Source: Candidatus Uhrbacteria bacterium
GTDB lineage: Bacteria; Patescibacteriota; Patescibacteriia; UBA9934
NCBI GenBank assembly: GCA_943354605.1
Contig: CALRCK010000004.1
Location: 23,584 to 87,583, forward strand
Direction: 5' to 3'
Length of the DNA: 64,000 nucleotides
Position numbers and translations under genes: made by a program. Shown one piece after another: positions 3,276-45,250 of this stretch; position 1 is the stretch's first letter, and the number at the start of each line of letters is the position of its first letter. The notes beneath the pieces are model-generated. The model did not search any database and had not been told where the DNA came from. It was given only the letters and a program-made list of their open reading frames with translations.

Positions 3276-3761
3276 ATGAACATCAAGAAACATTTTTCGA
3301 GTCAAAAACCGTGGGTGAAGGGAGGGGTCATCGGCGTCCTTCTTTGTACAGCATTCTTTTCCGTCTACCCGATTATCTATTTCCCGCTCGTCGAAAATGA
3401 AATCGGGATTCCAGACACCGCGCTCATTCTGCCAACCGTTACCGGGCACACATTCGTATTCTTCTCACATTTCATCATTGAAGGATCCACGATCCCCGCA
3501 ACGATCTGCACTGAAACGGAGACACACTGTGTCTCGTGGTCGCTGACGGACGACACCGGCACTAGCACACCGTTCACCGACCCTGAAGGAGACGCAGGAT
3601 ATTGCCTCGAAGAAGAAACCACTCCAAAATCCTCTTGCGTCGATCGTGTTGAGAGCGCGATCGCGATCACTTCATTCATCGCACTTGAAGCAATCTATTT
3701 CGTGATTGGCGCGGTGATTGCAACAATCGTTGAGAAAAGGGGAAGGACTTCATCTAAATAA
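3276..3761 (+). CDS. Hypothetical membrane protein
   Basis: ORF with hydrophobic N-terminal and C-terminal segments. No recognisable family. Confidence 0.3.
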   Translation: MNIKKHFSSQKPWVKGGVIGVLLCTAFFSVYPIIYFPLVENEIGIPDTALILPTVTGHTFVFFSHFIIEGSTIPATICTETETHCVSWSLTDDTGTSTPFTDPEGDAGYCLEEETTPKSSCVDRVESAIAITSFIALEAIYFVIGAVIATIVEKRGRTSSK

Positions 3762-3768
3762 ATACGAT

Positions 3769-4149
3769 ATGTATCGCGGAACAATTATTGAAGAAAGTTT
3801 ACGCGACAAAAGCGTGCTCGATGATATCTCTATTGTAAAGACGGAAGTCGAAGAGGTGACAGCGGGTTTTAACACGCCATGGCTGAAACAATGGACACTT
3901 GATGTCGTTGAAATTGCGGACGGTGAAATCGATGCGTTTGTTTCTCGACTACAAGACGCGATCGAAACCGAACACACGTCATGGTATGCCGACCTGAAAA
4001 ACGACACCGATCACTACATTATTTTTCCTCAAAGAGTATTTCACGTGGCTCGATCCCAAAAGGCACAGTATCATGACGTTGTAGTATATGGAGTGAGTCT
4101 AGGAATTCCAAAACATCAACTCACGCCACTTCTCTCAGATGCACCATAA
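3769..4149 (+). CDS. Hypothetical protein
   Basis: ORF trimmed to the internal Met (MYRGTIIEE..) to avoid overlap with the previous gene. No family recognised. Confidence 0.3.
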   Translation: MYRGTIIEESLRDKSVLDDISIVKTEVEEVTAGFNTPWLKQWTLDVVEIADGEIDAFVSRLQDAIETEHTSWYADLKNDTDHYIIFPQRVFHVARSQKAQYHDVVVYGVSLGIPKHQLTPLLSDAP

Positions 4150-4171: not shown

Positions 4172-4627
4172 ATGAAAGCCAAAAATTTTACCCTCAACGA
4201 TCAAACCGGAAAGGCACACGAACTGAAAGGTTACGAAGGGAAGTGGGTGGTGCTGTATTTTTACCCGAAGGATATGACGCCGGGCTGTACGCAGGAGGCA
4301 TGCGATTTTCGCGACAACATCAATCGCCTTGCATCAGCGAACGCTGTGGTGCTTGGCATCTCAGCCGACGACGAAAAGCGACACGCGAAATTCGTTGCAA
4401 AGGAATCGCTTACGTTCCCATTGCTCGCCGATTCGGATCACGCGGTGTGTGATGCGTACGGTGTGTGGCAGAAAAAGAAATTCATGGGACGCGAGTACAA
4501 TGGCATTGTCCGCACAACGCTCATCATCAACCCAGTAGGGGACATCGCAAAACGCTACGACGAGGTGAAGGTTGGTGGGCATGTCGAGGAAGTGTTAAGA
4601 GATCTTGTCGAACTTCAGAAGGAATAA
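4172..4627 (+). CDS. bcp: Peroxiredoxin Bcp (thiol peroxidase, AhpC/TSA family)
   Basis: Motif WVVLYFYPKDMTPGCTQEACDFRD contains the peroxidatic Cys in its canonical context. Start placed at MKAKNF... Confidence 0.85.
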   Translation: MKAKNFTLNDQTGKAHELKGYEGKWVVLYFYPKDMTPGCTQEACDFRDNINRLASANAVVLGISADDEKRHAKFVAKESLTFPLLADSDHAVCDAYGVWQKKKFMGREYNGIVRTTLIINPVGDIAKRYDEVKVGGHVEEVLRDLVELQKE

Positions 4628-4632
4628 ACATT

Positions 4633-5274
4633 ATGGACGTTCGAAAATCTCAGGGCGGGAAACAATTAGCGTGGACGAGGGAAGAAGTGATTGCGGGAAT
4701 TTCCAAATTCATAGAAGATAACGATCGATTTCCAAAGGGAGTTGAATTTGATTCCTTCCCATACCTGCCAAGCGTACGATCGATCCAGCGTACGTTCGGA
4801 GGCCTAATTAATCTGAAAAAGGAGATGGGCATCAGTGAAAGCTATCATAGTGGGGAATACAGATCCGCCATAGCTAAAAAAATAAATCTTCGAGGACAGA
4901 AAGACGAACAGATGATTGGCACAGAGCTAGAAAAACGCTTTGGCGAAGTCTGCGTTCATTATCAAGGATTGGCCGGGAGCAGAAAGGAAAGACTTGATTT
5001 TGTTGTATATCATAAAACTGGGAAATTTGGAGTCGACACATTTTTCCCGGAGGATATTGTAAACTTTGGAGCGATCATCAATATCAAGCAAAAGAAATAT
5101 CAAATGTTTTCGAATCCAATTTTCTTCGTTGTGATGAATGGTTCGCTGACGATGGCCCAAATACGGGACGTGTTAACGAGAAAAGATAATGCGCTACAAA
5201 AAAATATCTCCGTGCTCACGCTCGATTCATTTTTGCTGGAGCTGAACAAGTATCAGAGGAGAGAAGTGCTATAA
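4633..5274 (+). CDS. Protein with an N-terminal homing-endonuclease-associated (HNH-repeat-like) motif; C-terminal domain unknown
   Basis: WTREEVIAGISKFIEDNDRFPKGVEFDSFPYLPSVRSIQRTFGGLINLKKEMGI fits the HEARO consensus (E..L...L......GR.PT..EYD.....S..TI.KRFGSWN.AL..AGL). Sits in a locally AT-rich region. Start placed at the ATG just after bcp. Confidence 0.45.
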   Translation: MDVRKSQGGKQLAWTREEVIAGISKFIEDNDRFPKGVEFDSFPYLPSVRSIQRTFGGLINLKKEMGISESYHSGEYRSAIAKKINLRGQKDEQMIGTELEKRFGEVCVHYQGLAGSRKERLDFVVYHKTGKFGVDTFFPEDIVNFGAIINIKQKKYQMFSNPIFFVVMNGSLTMAQIRDVLTRKDNALQKNISVLTLDSFLLELNKYQRREVL

Positions 5275-39057: not shown

Positions 39058-39810
39058 ATGGACACGACGGATCGTGTGCAGCTGTTCGTCCCCAACGAAC
39101 AGCCACGCTTCAGAAAGCACTTTCCCGCACATCTCAAGGACGCCACCACGGCTGCAAAGGAATTCCTGCGGGAATACCCAGCAGGCGTGGCACCGGCCGA
39201 CCTCGAGGACTGGGTTGCGAGCATCGACCACAGCGCACTACACACATTCCACAACACCGAGGAGCTCGTCTGCGCCGCCACCGGCGTGTACTACAGCGTT
39301 GTCGCGGAAGGCATGGATCGAGTCCTCACGCGCCAATTCATCGGCGCCCTTGGTCAGATCAGGCTCACCAAAGCCGTCATGACCCTGAACCTGGAAAATC
39401 GTCGACAGCTCCTGCGGCTCGAGAGCGTCGCAGCAAAACGGACGCACAGTGTTCTGGGCGTCGCTCGGCTGGCGGCAGCGCTCAACGCAGCAGGGGCGAG
39501 ATGCTATCTTCCCACCGCGCATGAAGACGCCAGGTGGAAAATCGATCTCCTCTTCACCCACGGCGACGCAGTAGCGTGCGTTCAGGTGAAGCAAGGCCAA
39601 AGTTCCTGCAGGCGAATCGTTGAGCCATTCGACCCAAGGGAGGAGGAATTCCTTCGCGGTGTTCACCAGTTCAGCGCGGAACATTCCGTCAGCGCAGTCC
39701 CCTTGTGGGTTGCGATAGGAAACCGAGGAAAGCATTCCGCGACCACGATGTGTTCGCCCGAATCGATCCAGTTCGGAATGCAGGTCGTATCAACCGCCAG
39801 GAAGACGTGA
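39058..39810 (+). CDS. Hypothetical protein (high-GC island 5)
   Basis: 250-aa GC3-rich ORF with its own TTGACG-N17-TAGGAT promoter-like sequence, a GGAGGA RBS, and a GC-rich terminator immediately after. Confidence 0.4.
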   Translation: MDTTDRVQLFVPNEQPRFRKHFPAHLKDATTAAKEFLREYPAGVAPADLEDWVASIDHSALHTFHNTEELVCAATGVYYSVVAEGMDRVLTRQFIGALGQIRLTKAVMTLNLENRRQLLRLESVAAKRTHSVLGVARLAAALNAAGARCYLPTAHEDARWKIDLLFTHGDAVACVQVKQGQSSCRRIVEPFDPREEEFLRGVHQFSAEHSVSAVPLWVAIGNRGKHSATTMCSPESIQFGMQVVSTARKT

Positions 39811-40711: not shown

Positions 40712-40788
40712 TGGTGCGTCTGGCGCGATTCGAACGCACGATCTCCTCCTTCGGAGGGAGGCGCTTTATCCAGCTAAGCTACAGACGC
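40712..40788 (-). tRNA. tRNA-Arg (anticodon CCG)
   Basis: Reverse complement reads GCGTCTGTAGCTTAGCTGGATAAAGCGCCTCCCTCCGAAGGAGGAGATCGTGCGTTCGAATCGCGCCAGACGCACCA. Cloverleaf has a 7-bp acceptor stem, anticodon loop CUCCGAA, T-loop GTTCGAATC, and an encoded CCA. Confidence 0.85.
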
Positions 40789-41777: not shown

Positions 41778-42962
41778 ATGTCCAACATTTCCCCTCTCTG
41801 TCCAAAGCCCGACGTCTGCGGTTCGTGCGGATGGAGTCATATTCCATACGAGAAGCAGCTTCAGCAAAAACTTTCCGATATTAACGGTTCGTTTGCCATG
41901 AAGAAGCTCGATCTTCAAGTGGAAGACATTTTTCCGTCTCCAAAAACATCGCACTACCGCAATCGCATGGACTTTGTGATCAGCTTTAAAGGCGAGGTTG
42001 GACTTCGCGAAAAAGGAAAGTGGTGGCGCGTGATTGACGACCACACCTGTTTTCTTGGCGATGAAAAAATCGAAACTCTCTTCGCAACCGTTCGCGATTG
42101 GTCAAAGTCGTGCGGTCTTTCGTTTTTCGATCGCAAATCGAACATTGGCACCCTCCGCTACGCCGTGATCCGATCCTCAAGCATTGGCGAAACGATGATC
42201 ATCATCGTCACGAGCGCACCGAATGGTGAATCGCAATCTGGCGAAGGAAACGTTTTGACGACGGTGGATTTCAACGACGACAAAGCTTCAATCGAATCCG
42301 CGCTTGCTGATCTTGCAAAGAACGCTGGTGCAACGACCGTGGTGTGGTCCGTGAATCACACCGTCTCCGACGTATCGTTCGGCGATGACTTGCGCGTCAT
42401 CGGCGGCCCTGGTGCGATCAATGAGAATATCGACGGAATCAAATTCCGCATTTCGCCAAACGCATTCTTCCAAACAAACTCATACGCGGCTCCGATGCTG
42501 CTCTCGACGGTTCGCGATTTCGCCGGCGACCTTACGGGAAAAACACTCCTCGATCTGTACTGCGGCACAGGTTTCTTCGCGGTTGCGATGGCAGACGATG
42601 CAAAGAAAACGATCGGCGTGGAACTTGTTGCTGATGCGATTCGCGATGCGCGCATCAACGCAGAACTCAACAACGTGAGTGTTGATTTCCACGATGCGAA
42701 AACCGAAGACTTCGATTGGATGAAGCTTGGCGCCGACGTCGTCATTCTCGATCCTCCACGTTCCGGCATGCACGACAAAGCACTCGCCGACGTGATTGCC
42801 GCAAAGCCCGCCCGCATCGTCTACGTCAGTTGCAACTACAAAAACTTCGCCCGCGAGATGGTAGAACTCTCCAAATACTACGACGTGGACAACATCCGCG
42901 CCGTGGACATGTTCCCTCACACGCCACACGTGGAGCTTGTTACGGCGTTAGTGAGGAAGTAA
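41778..42962 (+). CDS. RlmD/RumA (TrmA) family RNA (uracil-5-)-methyltransferase
   Basis: N-terminal Cys cluster (CPKPDVCGSCGW), SAM motif LLDLYCGTGFFAVAMA, and DPPRSG. Start set at MSNISPL. The listed ORF is a read-through of the upstream high-GC island. Confidence 0.75.
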   Translation: MSNISPLCPKPDVCGSCGWSHIPYEKQLQQKLSDINGSFAMKKLDLQVEDIFPSPKTSHYRNRMDFVISFKGEVGLREKGKWWRVIDDHTCFLGDEKIETLFATVRDWSKSCGLSFFDRKSNIGTLRYAVIRSSSIGETMIIIVTSAPNGESQSGEGNVLTTVDFNDDKASIESALADLAKNAGATTVVWSVNHTVSDVSFGDDLRVIGGPGAINENIDGIKFRISPNAFFQTNSYAAPMLLSTVRDFAGDLTGKTLLDLYCGTGFFAVAMADDAKKTIGVELVADAIRDARINAELNNVSVDFHDAKTEDFDWMKLGADVVILDPPRSGMHDKALADVIAAKPARIVYVSCNYKNFAREMVELSKYYDVDNIRAVDMFPHTPHVELVTALVRK

Positions 42963-42966
42963 GGGG

Positions 42967-43725
42967 TCAGGTCTTGCTTTTAGCGATTTCATCATCGTAC
43001 AAATGAAGAAAAATCGCTGCCGCAGAATAATCAGCAAGAATGCCAATTTTCATAGCCGGATATTCGGCACGGAGGGAGCGATGAATAATCGGGATCGTTT
43101 CAATGATATCGGAGGTACTCTGCAACGCTTCGTATGTCTTCCGAAGGATTGGAAAACCTTGGAGCGCATGATTCCCCCATTGAAAATTCGATGTATCTGT
43201 TGAAAACGCCTTTGTGAGATACCGATAGAATTCCGCAACTGATGAAAGATGTCGCTCCGCAGAATCATCAAAATTTCGTTTCGCCTCATTTGTTGATGTT
43301 GACCATGCACGTTTTCGCGCATCAAGGAGATGATGGACATCTTCAGTTTTTCGTCGCTCAAGAAGCTCTCCCATCCGATCGATAGCCGCAAATCCAGAGC
43401 GAGACAATAGTCGAGCAACAACCGTTAGAAACATACTTTCAAGCAAACCAAAATTCACGTATTTCGATGACTTATTCGCATTTGAAACGTTCAACGCAGG
43501 AACAAAATACCGAAATATTTCAATCTGGTCTGCCTCGTGAGTAACGTCATCCGCAAGAGAACGAAAATATTTTCCAACATTAATCCCGGCAATCAAAAAA
43601 TCTTGTAGTGACTTTCCTGGTAAATCAACATACCGCGTGGTACATCCGTCTTTGTCGGAGATAGCCTCAAGCGTAAACGCGATAGTCACAAGGCGCTGGA
43701 TTTCATCGGCAGAGTGCATAACCAA
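42967..43725 (-). CDS. Hypothetical protein (AT-rich island, partner of the small GHKL protein)
   Basis: 252-aa ORF with no recognisable motifs. Region GC is well below the genome average. Confidence 0.4.
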   Translation of the reverse strand: MVMHSADEIQRLVTIAFTLEAISDKDGCTTRYVDLPGKSLQDFLIAGINVGKYFRSLADDVTHEADQIEIFRYFVPALNVSNANKSSKYVNFGLLESMFLTVVARLLSRSGFAAIDRMGELLERRKTEDVHHLLDARKRAWSTSTNEAKRNFDDSAERHLSSVAEFYRYLTKAFSTDTSNFQWGNHALQGFPILRKTYEALQSTSDIIETIPIIHRSLRAEYPAMKIGILADYSAAAIFLHLYDDEIAKSKT

Positions 43726-43734
43726 AATGTTTCT

Positions 43735-44301
43735 TTAGGATGAAATCGCTGGGAGCCCACGAAGGAACACCTTTGAAAACGTTACTCGTGTTCCATGTTG
43801 GACGTCTGTATCCGACGATTCCACAAGATATTTTTGGCCTTTCACTTTCTGATATTTTTTTCCGTTTGTCTCAAGAATAAACGTATCGGAATATCTCTTT
43901 ACTTGCCAAAGTCCGTGTTCGATATCAATAGCATATTTCACCGATTCTGCATCAGGGAATCCTTCTCCGCCATCTTCAACAACCACAGTAATGGTATGCG
44001 TATCGAACATCACCTTTAGTGTCCCCTTCTCGACACTCTCCTGAGCGTTTCTTGCGATTTCAATAAAATAGTATAAAAAGTTTTGAAGTTTTTTCTCTTT
44101 CGCATCAAGAGTATTTTCCAAACAAATCCGATCCCACCAATGACCAACAGCGCCTGGAATCCAGCTATACCCAGTAGCCAACACCCTTTCACTAATCTCT
44201 TCCGAACCAAAACGTCTTTTGTCAAAATCAATTGTAAACACTCTCGGTGCTTGCTCTCGTTGCTCACTGTATGTTGGGAATCCTTCCGCGTTGATTTTCA
44301 T
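43735..44301 (-). CDS. Small GHKL-type ATPase (RsbW/SpoIIAB-like anti-sigma-factor/Ser-kinase fold)
   Basis: N-box-like FIEIARNAQES and G1 box TVVVEDGGEGFP in a 188-aa protein. AT-rich. Confidence 0.4.
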   Translation of the reverse strand: MKINAEGFPTYSEQREQAPRVFTIDFDKRRFGSEEISERVLATGYSWIPGAVGHWWDRICLENTLDAKEKKLQNFLYYFIEIARNAQESVEKGTLKVMFDTHTITVVVEDGGEGFPDAESVKYAIDIEHGLWQVKRYSDTFILETNGKKYQKVKGQKYLVESSDTDVQHGTRVTFSKVFLRGLPAISS

Positions 44302-44395
44302 AAACCTTTGCGCACATTCGTTGACGTAAAGCTATTTTTCCGCTAAGCTCTGCGTATTATTCTTTCGGCCAATGGGCCGATGACCACCTAAATGT

Positions 44396-45250
44396 ATGGC
44401 AAAGTCCGGAATGGTTGCGATTGTGGGACGAAGTAACGTCGGAAAATCGACGCTCATTAATACGATCGTTGGAACGAAAGTCGCAATTACCACACCAAAA
44501 CCACAAACCACACGACGTCCTATTCAGGGTATCATCACACGCCCTCAGGGTCAGGTGGTGTTTGTGGACACGCCAGGAATCATGCAAAAGGCTCGCGACA
44601 CGCTGACCAACAAACTCAACGCGTACGCCAAGGATTCGCTGCGCGATGTGAATGCTGTGTTGTACGTTGTTGATCCGACACGCCCAATCGGCGACGAGGA
44701 AAAACAGGCGTTCCGTCTTGTTGAGAAAATCACCATTCCAAAGTTGCTCGTCATTAACAAAATCGACGACAAGGCAAGCAAAAACTTCATCGACTACTAC
44801 CGCGATCTTGGAAACAAATTTGATGCGTACGTGGAAGTGTCTGCGATGACGTCGAAGAACACAGATCTCATTGAAAAATGGATCTGGGAACAAATGCCAG
44901 AAGGCGAATTTCTCTATCCTGAATTCCAGCTCACGAGCATGGGCAACGAAGAATGGCTCGCGGAGTTGATTCGCGAAAAACTCTTTCTCCGTTTGCGCGA
45001 AGAAGTGCCGTACTCAACGCACGTTGAAGTGAACAGCATCGATATTCAAGACAACGGCACCGTATTCGTAGACGCCACCATTTACACACACTCCGAACGC
45101 TATAAGCCGATGATTATCGGCGCAGGCGGACGAGGCATTAAGGAAATTGGACAATCCACGCGACGCGAACTTGAAGCCGTTACTGGGAAGAAGTATTTTC
45201 TTCAGCTGGCTGTTGCGGTTGATCCTCGCTGGGTTGAGCGGATGGAGTAG
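44396..45250 (+). CDS. era: GTPase Era
   Basis: G1 box GRSNVGKST, G3 box DTPG, G4 box NKID, and a C-terminal KH domain. Confidence 0.9.
   Translation: MAKSGMVAIVGRSNVGKSTLINTIVGTKVAITTPKPQTTRRPIQGIITRPQGQVVFVDTPGIMQKARDTLTNKLNAYAKDSLRDVNAVLYVVDPTRPIGDEEKQAFRLVEKITIPKLLVINKIDDKASKNFIDYYRDLGNKFDAYVEVSAMTSKNTDLIEKWIWEQMPEGEFLYPEFQLTSMGNEEWLAELIREKLFLRLREEVPYSTHVEVNSIDIQDNGTVFVDATIYTHSERYKPMIIGAGGRGIKEIGQSTRRELEAVTGKKYFLQLAVAVDPRWVERME

Follow-up and report, generated by a model that had tools for sequence, protein, structure and literature searches.

We describe here a low-GC island of two genes between era and rlmD in a Candidatus Uhrbacteria genome, within the 64,000-nt stretch of contig that was analysed as a whole (the window). 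The first gene in the direction of transcription encodes a 188-residue product that is predicted, from its sequence and a structural model, to be a stand-alone, single-domain GHKL protein of the SpoIIAB/RsbW type that binds ATP, and family searches and modelling assign the product of the second to a branch of the CitG superfamily that is short and divergent. Both proteins add new, divergent members to superfamilies already known, and their pairing is most likely fortuitous. The reading we favor, with a probability of roughly 0.6, is that of a chance operon in which a mobile orphan GHKL gene lies upstream of a resident CitG-like gene, in a segment probably imported from a lower-GC relative. A preliminary description of the interval, made from the sequence alone, had raised the prospect of a new module for regulation, toxin-antitoxin action, or defence. 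This prospect mostly dissolves now that the partner proves to belong to a recognisable family of enzymes, is encoded at the usual locus of that family, and is paired with GHKL in this genome only.

Layout and base composition of the island

The two same-strand ORFs of 188 and 252 aa noted in the preliminary description were recovered at the same positions, and the flanks it named are sound: the RlmD/TrmA-type methyltransferase matches PF05958 (E 1.7e-25), and the era product matches the Pfam domains MMR_HSR1 (E 1e-25) and KH_2 (E 2.6e-10). The features are arranged as follows.

41838–42962, plus strand: flank encoding an RlmD/TrmA-family RNA uracil-5-methyltransferase, convergent with gene 2; composition ordinary
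42967–43725, minus strand: gene 2, CitG-like ORF, 252 aa from TTG 43725 or 250 aa from ATG 43719
43726–43734, minus strand: intercistronic spacer, 9 nt to the TTG and 15 nt to ATG 43719
43735–44301, minus strand: gene 1, GHKL ORF, 188 aa, ATG start
44302–44395, no strand assigned: leader between era and the putative two-gene operon, which are divergent; 94 nt
44396–45250, plus strand: era flank (GTPase and KH domain); composition ordinary, identity to its counterparts in relatives 95%

On sequence comparison the most likely start of gene 2 is ATG 43719 (250 aa) and not TTG 43725, because the ATG is used by an identical database protein (P0002, 250 aa) and matches the N-termini of homologues. 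The 9-nt separation first reported is correct to the TTG, but the gap is 15 nt if the likelier ATG is used. The database copy of gene 1 (P0001) is annotated as a shorter product of 168 aa, and we prefer the 188-aa start because the alignments of homologues begin at residues 4–13 and E13, F26, and F31 are conserved. A terminator scan of the minus strand called no terminator-like site in the spacer or the last bases of gene 1, and a promoter scan found no match to the sigma-70 consensus in the 94-nt leader.

The markedly lower GC reported for the interval is real, and the island is the lowest-GC stretch of the window: at 0.427, its GC is the minimum among all 1335-bp windows of the 64 kb (mean 0.523, sd 0.029). 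The GC3 values of genes 1 and 2 (0.376 and 0.379) rank within the bottom three of the window's 66 long ORFs (mean 0.557, sd 0.08) and lie about 0.18 under the genome, and these window-wide comparisons of GC and GC3 put the island well past chance. The drop covers both genes entirely and has sharp edges, one at the 3’ end of rlmD at its stop codon and the other inside the era leader. A repeat search around the island gave no target-site duplications and no terminal or flanking repeats. A perfect 12-nt inverted repeat (AGCGATTTCATC / GATGAAATCGCT, at 42982–42993 and 43739–43750) brackets the CitG-like gene, with its arms just within the 3’ ends of both island genes; it is probably a coincidence, because chance alone predicts about 0.1 such pairs in 2 kb.

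The GHKL and CitG-like proteins

The 188-aa protein contains the N box IEIARNAQES and the G1 box VVVEDGGEGFP, from which it had been likened to a small RsbW-type GHKL ATPase, and profile and structure comparisons agree. By itself the protein gives a sub-threshold HATPase_c match (Pfam, E 0.11), and a word-indexed homologue search returned its own near-identical copy only; an exhaustive HMMER search of representatives revealed a family of 49 cluster representatives, 31 of them at E<=1e-10. HATPase_c is matched by 29 of the 41 aligned family members and HATPase_c_2 by 13 of them, and against PDB the family profile finds SpoIIAB across the whole domain (E 4.5e-6), with RsbW weaker. The AF2 model (pLDDT 92.4) has the single-domain GHKL (Bergerat) fold of the 135–190 aa class, and a Foldseek search with it recovers the SpoIIAB structures 1th8, 1l0o, and 1til as the best PDB matches (E 1e-6 to 5e-6, target TM 0.65–0.71), headed by 1th8_A (E 1e-6, TM 0.71) and followed by UsfX, RsbW, and GyrB ATPase domains. 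NCBIfam gives weak matches to anti-sigma F, RsbW, and histidine kinase, and one homologue carries the JGI name anti-sigma regulatory factor.

The family alignment places the predicted ATP-binding boxes at E81/N85 (N box), D110-x-G112-x-G114-F (G1), and H129-G130-L131 (a G2 remnant), with a G3-like G170-T171. Residues E81, N85, D110, G112, G114, and G130-L131 are conserved across the family and the boxes align with those of SpoIIAB. The protein resembles SpoIIAB, RsbW, and UsfX (HATPase_c_2; 1th8, 1l0o, 6m36, and 8ih8) in its single Bergerat GHKL domain of similar size, in the N-terminal strand and helix that precede the N-box helix, and in the E-x-x-x-N-A N box, D-x-G-x-G-F G1 box, and G-L remnant of G2. 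It departs from them in having an N-terminal extension of about 19 residues, an insert after strand 1 and before helix 1, and positions characteristic of its own family (F26, F31, W55, C60, and K152), as well as a short ATP lid, the G1-to-G2 segment being about seven residues shorter than that of SpoIIAB. The setting also differs, in that the family is sporadic and mostly found in Patescibacteria, and neither a STAS antagonist nor a sigma factor gene adjoins the GHKL gene in nine contexts.

The 252-aa protein had been described as having no recognisable domain, a statement that does not survive the inclusion of its relatives. The window protein itself has no Pfam CitG match at E<=1. Its homologues form 54 clusters, most of them of Patescibacteria and one of a Nanoarchaeota MAG, and 33 of 44 aligned homologues match PF01874 (CitG) at E<=0.01, with a best E of 2.1e-11. 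The gathering score of 27 bits is exceeded by seven of nine checked homologues, collinear from the N-terminus, and homologues that are 34–44% identical to the window protein score 28.4–34.8 bits, the matches spanning only about positions 3–185 of the 284 in the model. The AF2 model is of high quality (pLDDT 95.3, pTM 0.93) and Foldseek assigns it a CitG fold with probability 1.0. Against PDB the family profile gives a marginal match (E 0.16) to 3h9p, a structural genomics entry from Archaeoglobus fulgidus (249 aa, 17% identity) described as a putative triphosphoribosyl-dephospho-CoA synthase, and an hhalign comparison of the family with E. coli CitG as a single sequence does not reach significance. 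The conserved motifs of gene 2 are E20..K25-x-G-C-T-T-R31..D34, K88..N-F-G93-L-L-E, and G228-I-L-A231-D232, and a MAFFT alignment that includes E. coli CitG (b0613, taken from NC_000913) shows E20, K25, R31, D34, G93-L94-L95, G228, and A231-D232 to be invariant in 10/10 sequences. The CitG relationship stands because of these Pfam model matches, the fold, and the motif alignment. The possibility, named earlier as a ground for refutation, that the 252-aa ORF could be a STAS or sigma-factor domain, making the pair an ordinary partner-switching module, was examined and is ruled out by the all-helical, CitG-like fold.

The likeness to CitG/MdcB, the ATP:dephospho-CoA triphosphoribosyl transferases of PF01874, thus lies in homologues that pass the Pfam cut-off and in motifs (E..K-x-G-x-x-x-R, G-L-L, and G-x-x-A-D) that align with those of the E. 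coli enzyme. The product of gene 2 is, unlike E. coli CitG, about 250 aa long as against 292, with about 40 residues of the latter, located before the last motif, having no counterpart, so its enzymatic activity may differ. Unlike CitG/MdcB genes, it is also situated among translation and RNA-modification genes with no citC/D/E/F/X at the loci: tblastn with E. coli CitC/D/E/F/X (E<=0.5) found no homologues in the window or any related locus, and the citrate-lyase and malonate-decarboxylase Pfam families (ACP subunit, CitX/MdcG) do not appear in the locus gene tables. This search covered the loci, and the two enzymes are probably lacking genome-wide too. By analogy with CitG, the protein would release adenine from ATP and pass the triphosphoribosyl group on to an acceptor. 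The identity of the acceptor is uncertain because the citrate-lyase context and the segment of about 40 residues are missing, and it would be something other than the prosthetic-group precursor of citrate lyase or malonate decarboxylase, or at least would act outside that context. The short CitG-like enzyme is a conserved feature of Patescibacteria and of some DPANN archaea, encoded with neither citrate lyase nor malonate decarboxylase close by, and in these reduced genomes it could be the sign of a step in cofactor or nucleotide modification that has gone unrecognised. A literature search returned nothing on CitG-like or anti-sigma-like proteins in Patescibacteria.

The locus in relatives and the contexts of GHKL genes

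Comparison with four related loci, where amino acid identities to the window are 88–96% for era, 77–83% for rlmD, 72–77% for SpoU, and 66–76% for the CitG-like gene, separates the histories of the two island genes. At one locus (L012) the order is era, CitG-like, rlmD, and SpoU, with a 77-nt leader and no additional gene from era to the CitG-like gene, and the same arrangement without an insert is seen in L014, L015, and L020, where the CitG-like gene has an in-frame stop. In L002 (4111–4998) and L013 (897–1781) the leader is followed by a gene for a 294/295-aa protein, which terminates 2 nt before the CitG-like ATG. A leader of about 95 nt is conserved in the window, L012, L002, L013, and L014 up to the start codon of the first gene, whichever that is. 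Because the CitG-like gene is syntenic in all close relatives it is a resident of the era–rlmD interval, and in those relatives it is conserved with ordinary GC3, whereas tblastn detects no GHKL family member at any of the four related loci. The island had been taken for a two-gene module that had entered between housekeeping genes, but the one additional gene is that of the GHKL protein. The position just 5’ of the CitG-like gene accepts differing cargo.

The 294/295-aa protein contains an HExxH motif (HESIHAH) and has a weak Pfam match to the putative metallopeptidase family DUF6782 (E 0.0018). Its gene has a GC3 of 0.42, likewise under that of its own flanks. A relationship between the GHKL protein and the L002 protein (295 aa) was considered and rejected, since similarity is undetectable on comparison. 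The interrupted CitG-like orthologue (L014:4948–5685, and also L015 and L020) is annotated at 174 aa and has similarity to residue 246, so that it is either a pseudogene or the product of a sequencing error; the L014-type allele recurs in several Hainich groundwater assemblies.

GHKL family members with an identifiable source come mostly from Patescibacteria (CPR), and their distribution is sporadic. The genes next to them encode DsrE, CDP-alcohol phosphatidyltransferase, NUDIX, NTPase_I-T, Pol-beta nucleotidyltransferase, and Lon proteins, and an ISL3 transposase fragment adjoins one homologue (among L009:2–532, L028, and L029:133–705). In CPR genomes of 33–42% GC, the main home of the family, the composition of the GHKL gene equals that of its host, and in L019, L028, L029, and the window the gene has the lower GC of the two. 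Most family members come from contigs of only about 1 kb or from the ends of contigs; one homologue sits at the extreme end of a 163-kb contig assigned by binning to Ignavibacteriae, and its GC is 0.30 compared to 0.46 for the rest of the locus. This mismatch with host GC and the frequent short-contig and contig-end positions are both consistent with a GHKL gene that is mobile and accessory. Orphan SpoIIAB-like GHKL proteins of this small and mainly CPR family would thus move between genomes with no recognisable partner, which raises the question of the kinase target.

The observation that no sigma factor or STAS antagonist is adjacent to the island proved correct, and the gene table of L001, which is the same genome as the window, lists neither a STAS nor a sigma gene for about 10 kb on one side and about 2.3 kb on the other (to the end of the 16.8-kb contig). 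No STAS, PP2C, or sigma gene adjoins GHKL in any of nine contexts, these being the window and eight other loci. A distant homologue, P0102 (259 aa, in a 60% GC host), has a 74-aa ORF that overlaps its start by 4 nt; the ORF is present in two independent samples (L010:4780–5004 and L011:538–762), has no Pfam match, and could be a possible partner protein for the P0102 branch of the family. In two unrelated genomes NUDIX hydrolase genes are found about 1 kb or less from CitG-like genes, and in a further genome one immediately precedes a GHKL homologue (L005:6550–6939, L007:6247–6801, L008:3247–3828, and L018:84–509). NUDIX genes are common in CPR, and this proximity may be meaningless for that reason.

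A probable chance operon and its alternatives

The two genes of the island are found together only in the window and in L001 when both families are searched by tblastn against all fetched loci, a set of 12 other distinct CitG-like loci and eight other distinct GHKL loci (about 20 loci in total, several of them on short contigs). No recurrent neighbour of CitG-like genes is seen outside the syntenic clade, and the more remote CitG-like genes are preceded by unrelated ones (YibE_F, a methyltransferase, and a YbaK-like editing domain). In the chance operon that we favor, the two functionally unrelated genes would form a leftward operon from the conserved leader shared divergently with era, and would probably be co-transcribed from it. 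The GHKL gene would sit in a permissive slot directly 5’ of the CitG-like start, a slot that is empty in some sisters and holds the 295-aa HExxH protein in others, and its product, by analogy with SpoIIAB and RsbW, would bind ATP and act as a Ser/Thr protein kinase or a binding switch on an unlinked partner.

The proposed horizontal acquisition of the island retains part of its force, in that the atypical composition suggests foreign DNA, although the CitG-like gene is resident at the locus and only GHKL is extra. Since both genes have the same unusual GC3, the whole segment most likely came from a relative of lower GC, in the simplest case by a recombination that brought in both genes jointly and replaced the resident CitG-like allele; a donor with a low-GC CitG-like allele was not found among the loci compared. 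The tight spacing and identical odd composition also imply that the genes arrived or evolved together, which counts against a chance operon, and a functional link between GHKL and the CitG-like protein in the donor lineage is possible. Similarly, the second unrelated gene placed 2 nt 5’ of the CitG-like gene in sisters means that the slot could hold partners of the enzyme and not be merely permissive.

Several other explanations can be considered in light of these observations. Ordinary partner switching is one possibility, which we consider less probable: GHKL would be the kinase or anti-sigma component, and the genes for its STAS antagonist, PP2C phosphatase, and sigma factor would lie at other places in the genome. 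Unlinked components of such systems occur in other bacteria, which provides a precedent, and the nearest structures (SpoIIAB, UsfX, and RsbW), the SpoIIAB profile match of 4.5e-6, and the JGI name of one homologue all point in this direction; however, locus-level data place a STAS, PP2C, or sigma gene beside GHKL in 0/9 contexts, the lid between G1 and G2 is about seven residues shorter than in SpoIIAB, and a sporadic, apparently mobile distribution fits a fixed regulatory circuit poorly. A dedicated two-gene module, in which a GHKL kinase or ATPase controls the CitG-like protein by phosphorylation or sequestration, or in which the pair forms a toxin-antitoxin-like or anti-phage unit, would account for two genes on the same strand with a terminator-free gap of 9–15 nt, equally atypical GC3, and predicted use of ATP by both proteins, and sister genomes do have another gene 2 nt from the CitG-like start. 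We nevertheless consider it unlikely, the pairing occurring in 0/12 other CitG-like loci and 0/8 other GHKL loci and the CitG-like gene standing alone behind the identical leader in L012. The PADLOC-DB 2.0 HMMs, which the preliminary description had proposed as a check, have no match to either protein or to any of the 41 GHKL family members, and searches of PHROGs, phage genomes, and viral contigs were negative as well. With a unique pairing and negative defence and phage searches, nothing but proximity speaks for a module, a toxin-antitoxin pair, or a defence unit, and the original suggestion of a toxin-antitoxin or defence function is not upheld.

Vertical inheritance of an ancestral GHKL and CitG-like pair, with GHKL lost or replaced in relatives and the low GC arising from local mutational bias or weak codon selection, appears quite unlikely. 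The identity of the CitG-like gene to its relatives (70–76%) is within the range of SpoU (72–77%) and rlmD (about 82%) and the leader is conserved, as this would predict, but the window allele is low in GC3 over its full length (0.38 overall, 0.28–0.44 per 150 nt) with sharp edges at both flanks, whereas orthologues vary from 0.44 to 0.70 along the gene and are 0.52–0.58 overall for full-length genes; moreover, GHKL is missing at the four related loci, and its main home is in genomes of 33–42% GC. We also note a more elaborate variant, very improbable in our estimation, in which the position is a cargo slot for interchangeable, translationally coupled partners (GHKL here and the HExxH metallopeptidase-like protein in sisters), each controlling or exploiting a CitG-like protein that would cleave adenine from ATP and transfer triphosphoribose. 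If this were true, Patescibacteria would possess a previously undescribed system of two components, for nucleotide modification, signalling, or conflict.

The island is not the only segment of atypical composition in the window. A second low-GC pair of ORFs at 3718–4149 and 4465–5274 (both on the plus strand; 143 and 269 aa, GC3 0.38 and 0.41) has no Pfam matches and may be another acquired segment. A 250-aa ORF at 39058–39810 (plus strand), a few kb from the island and with no Pfam match, departs in the opposite direction with an unusually high GC of 0.60 and GC3 of 0.70, and a tRNA is present at 40715–40788 on the minus strand.
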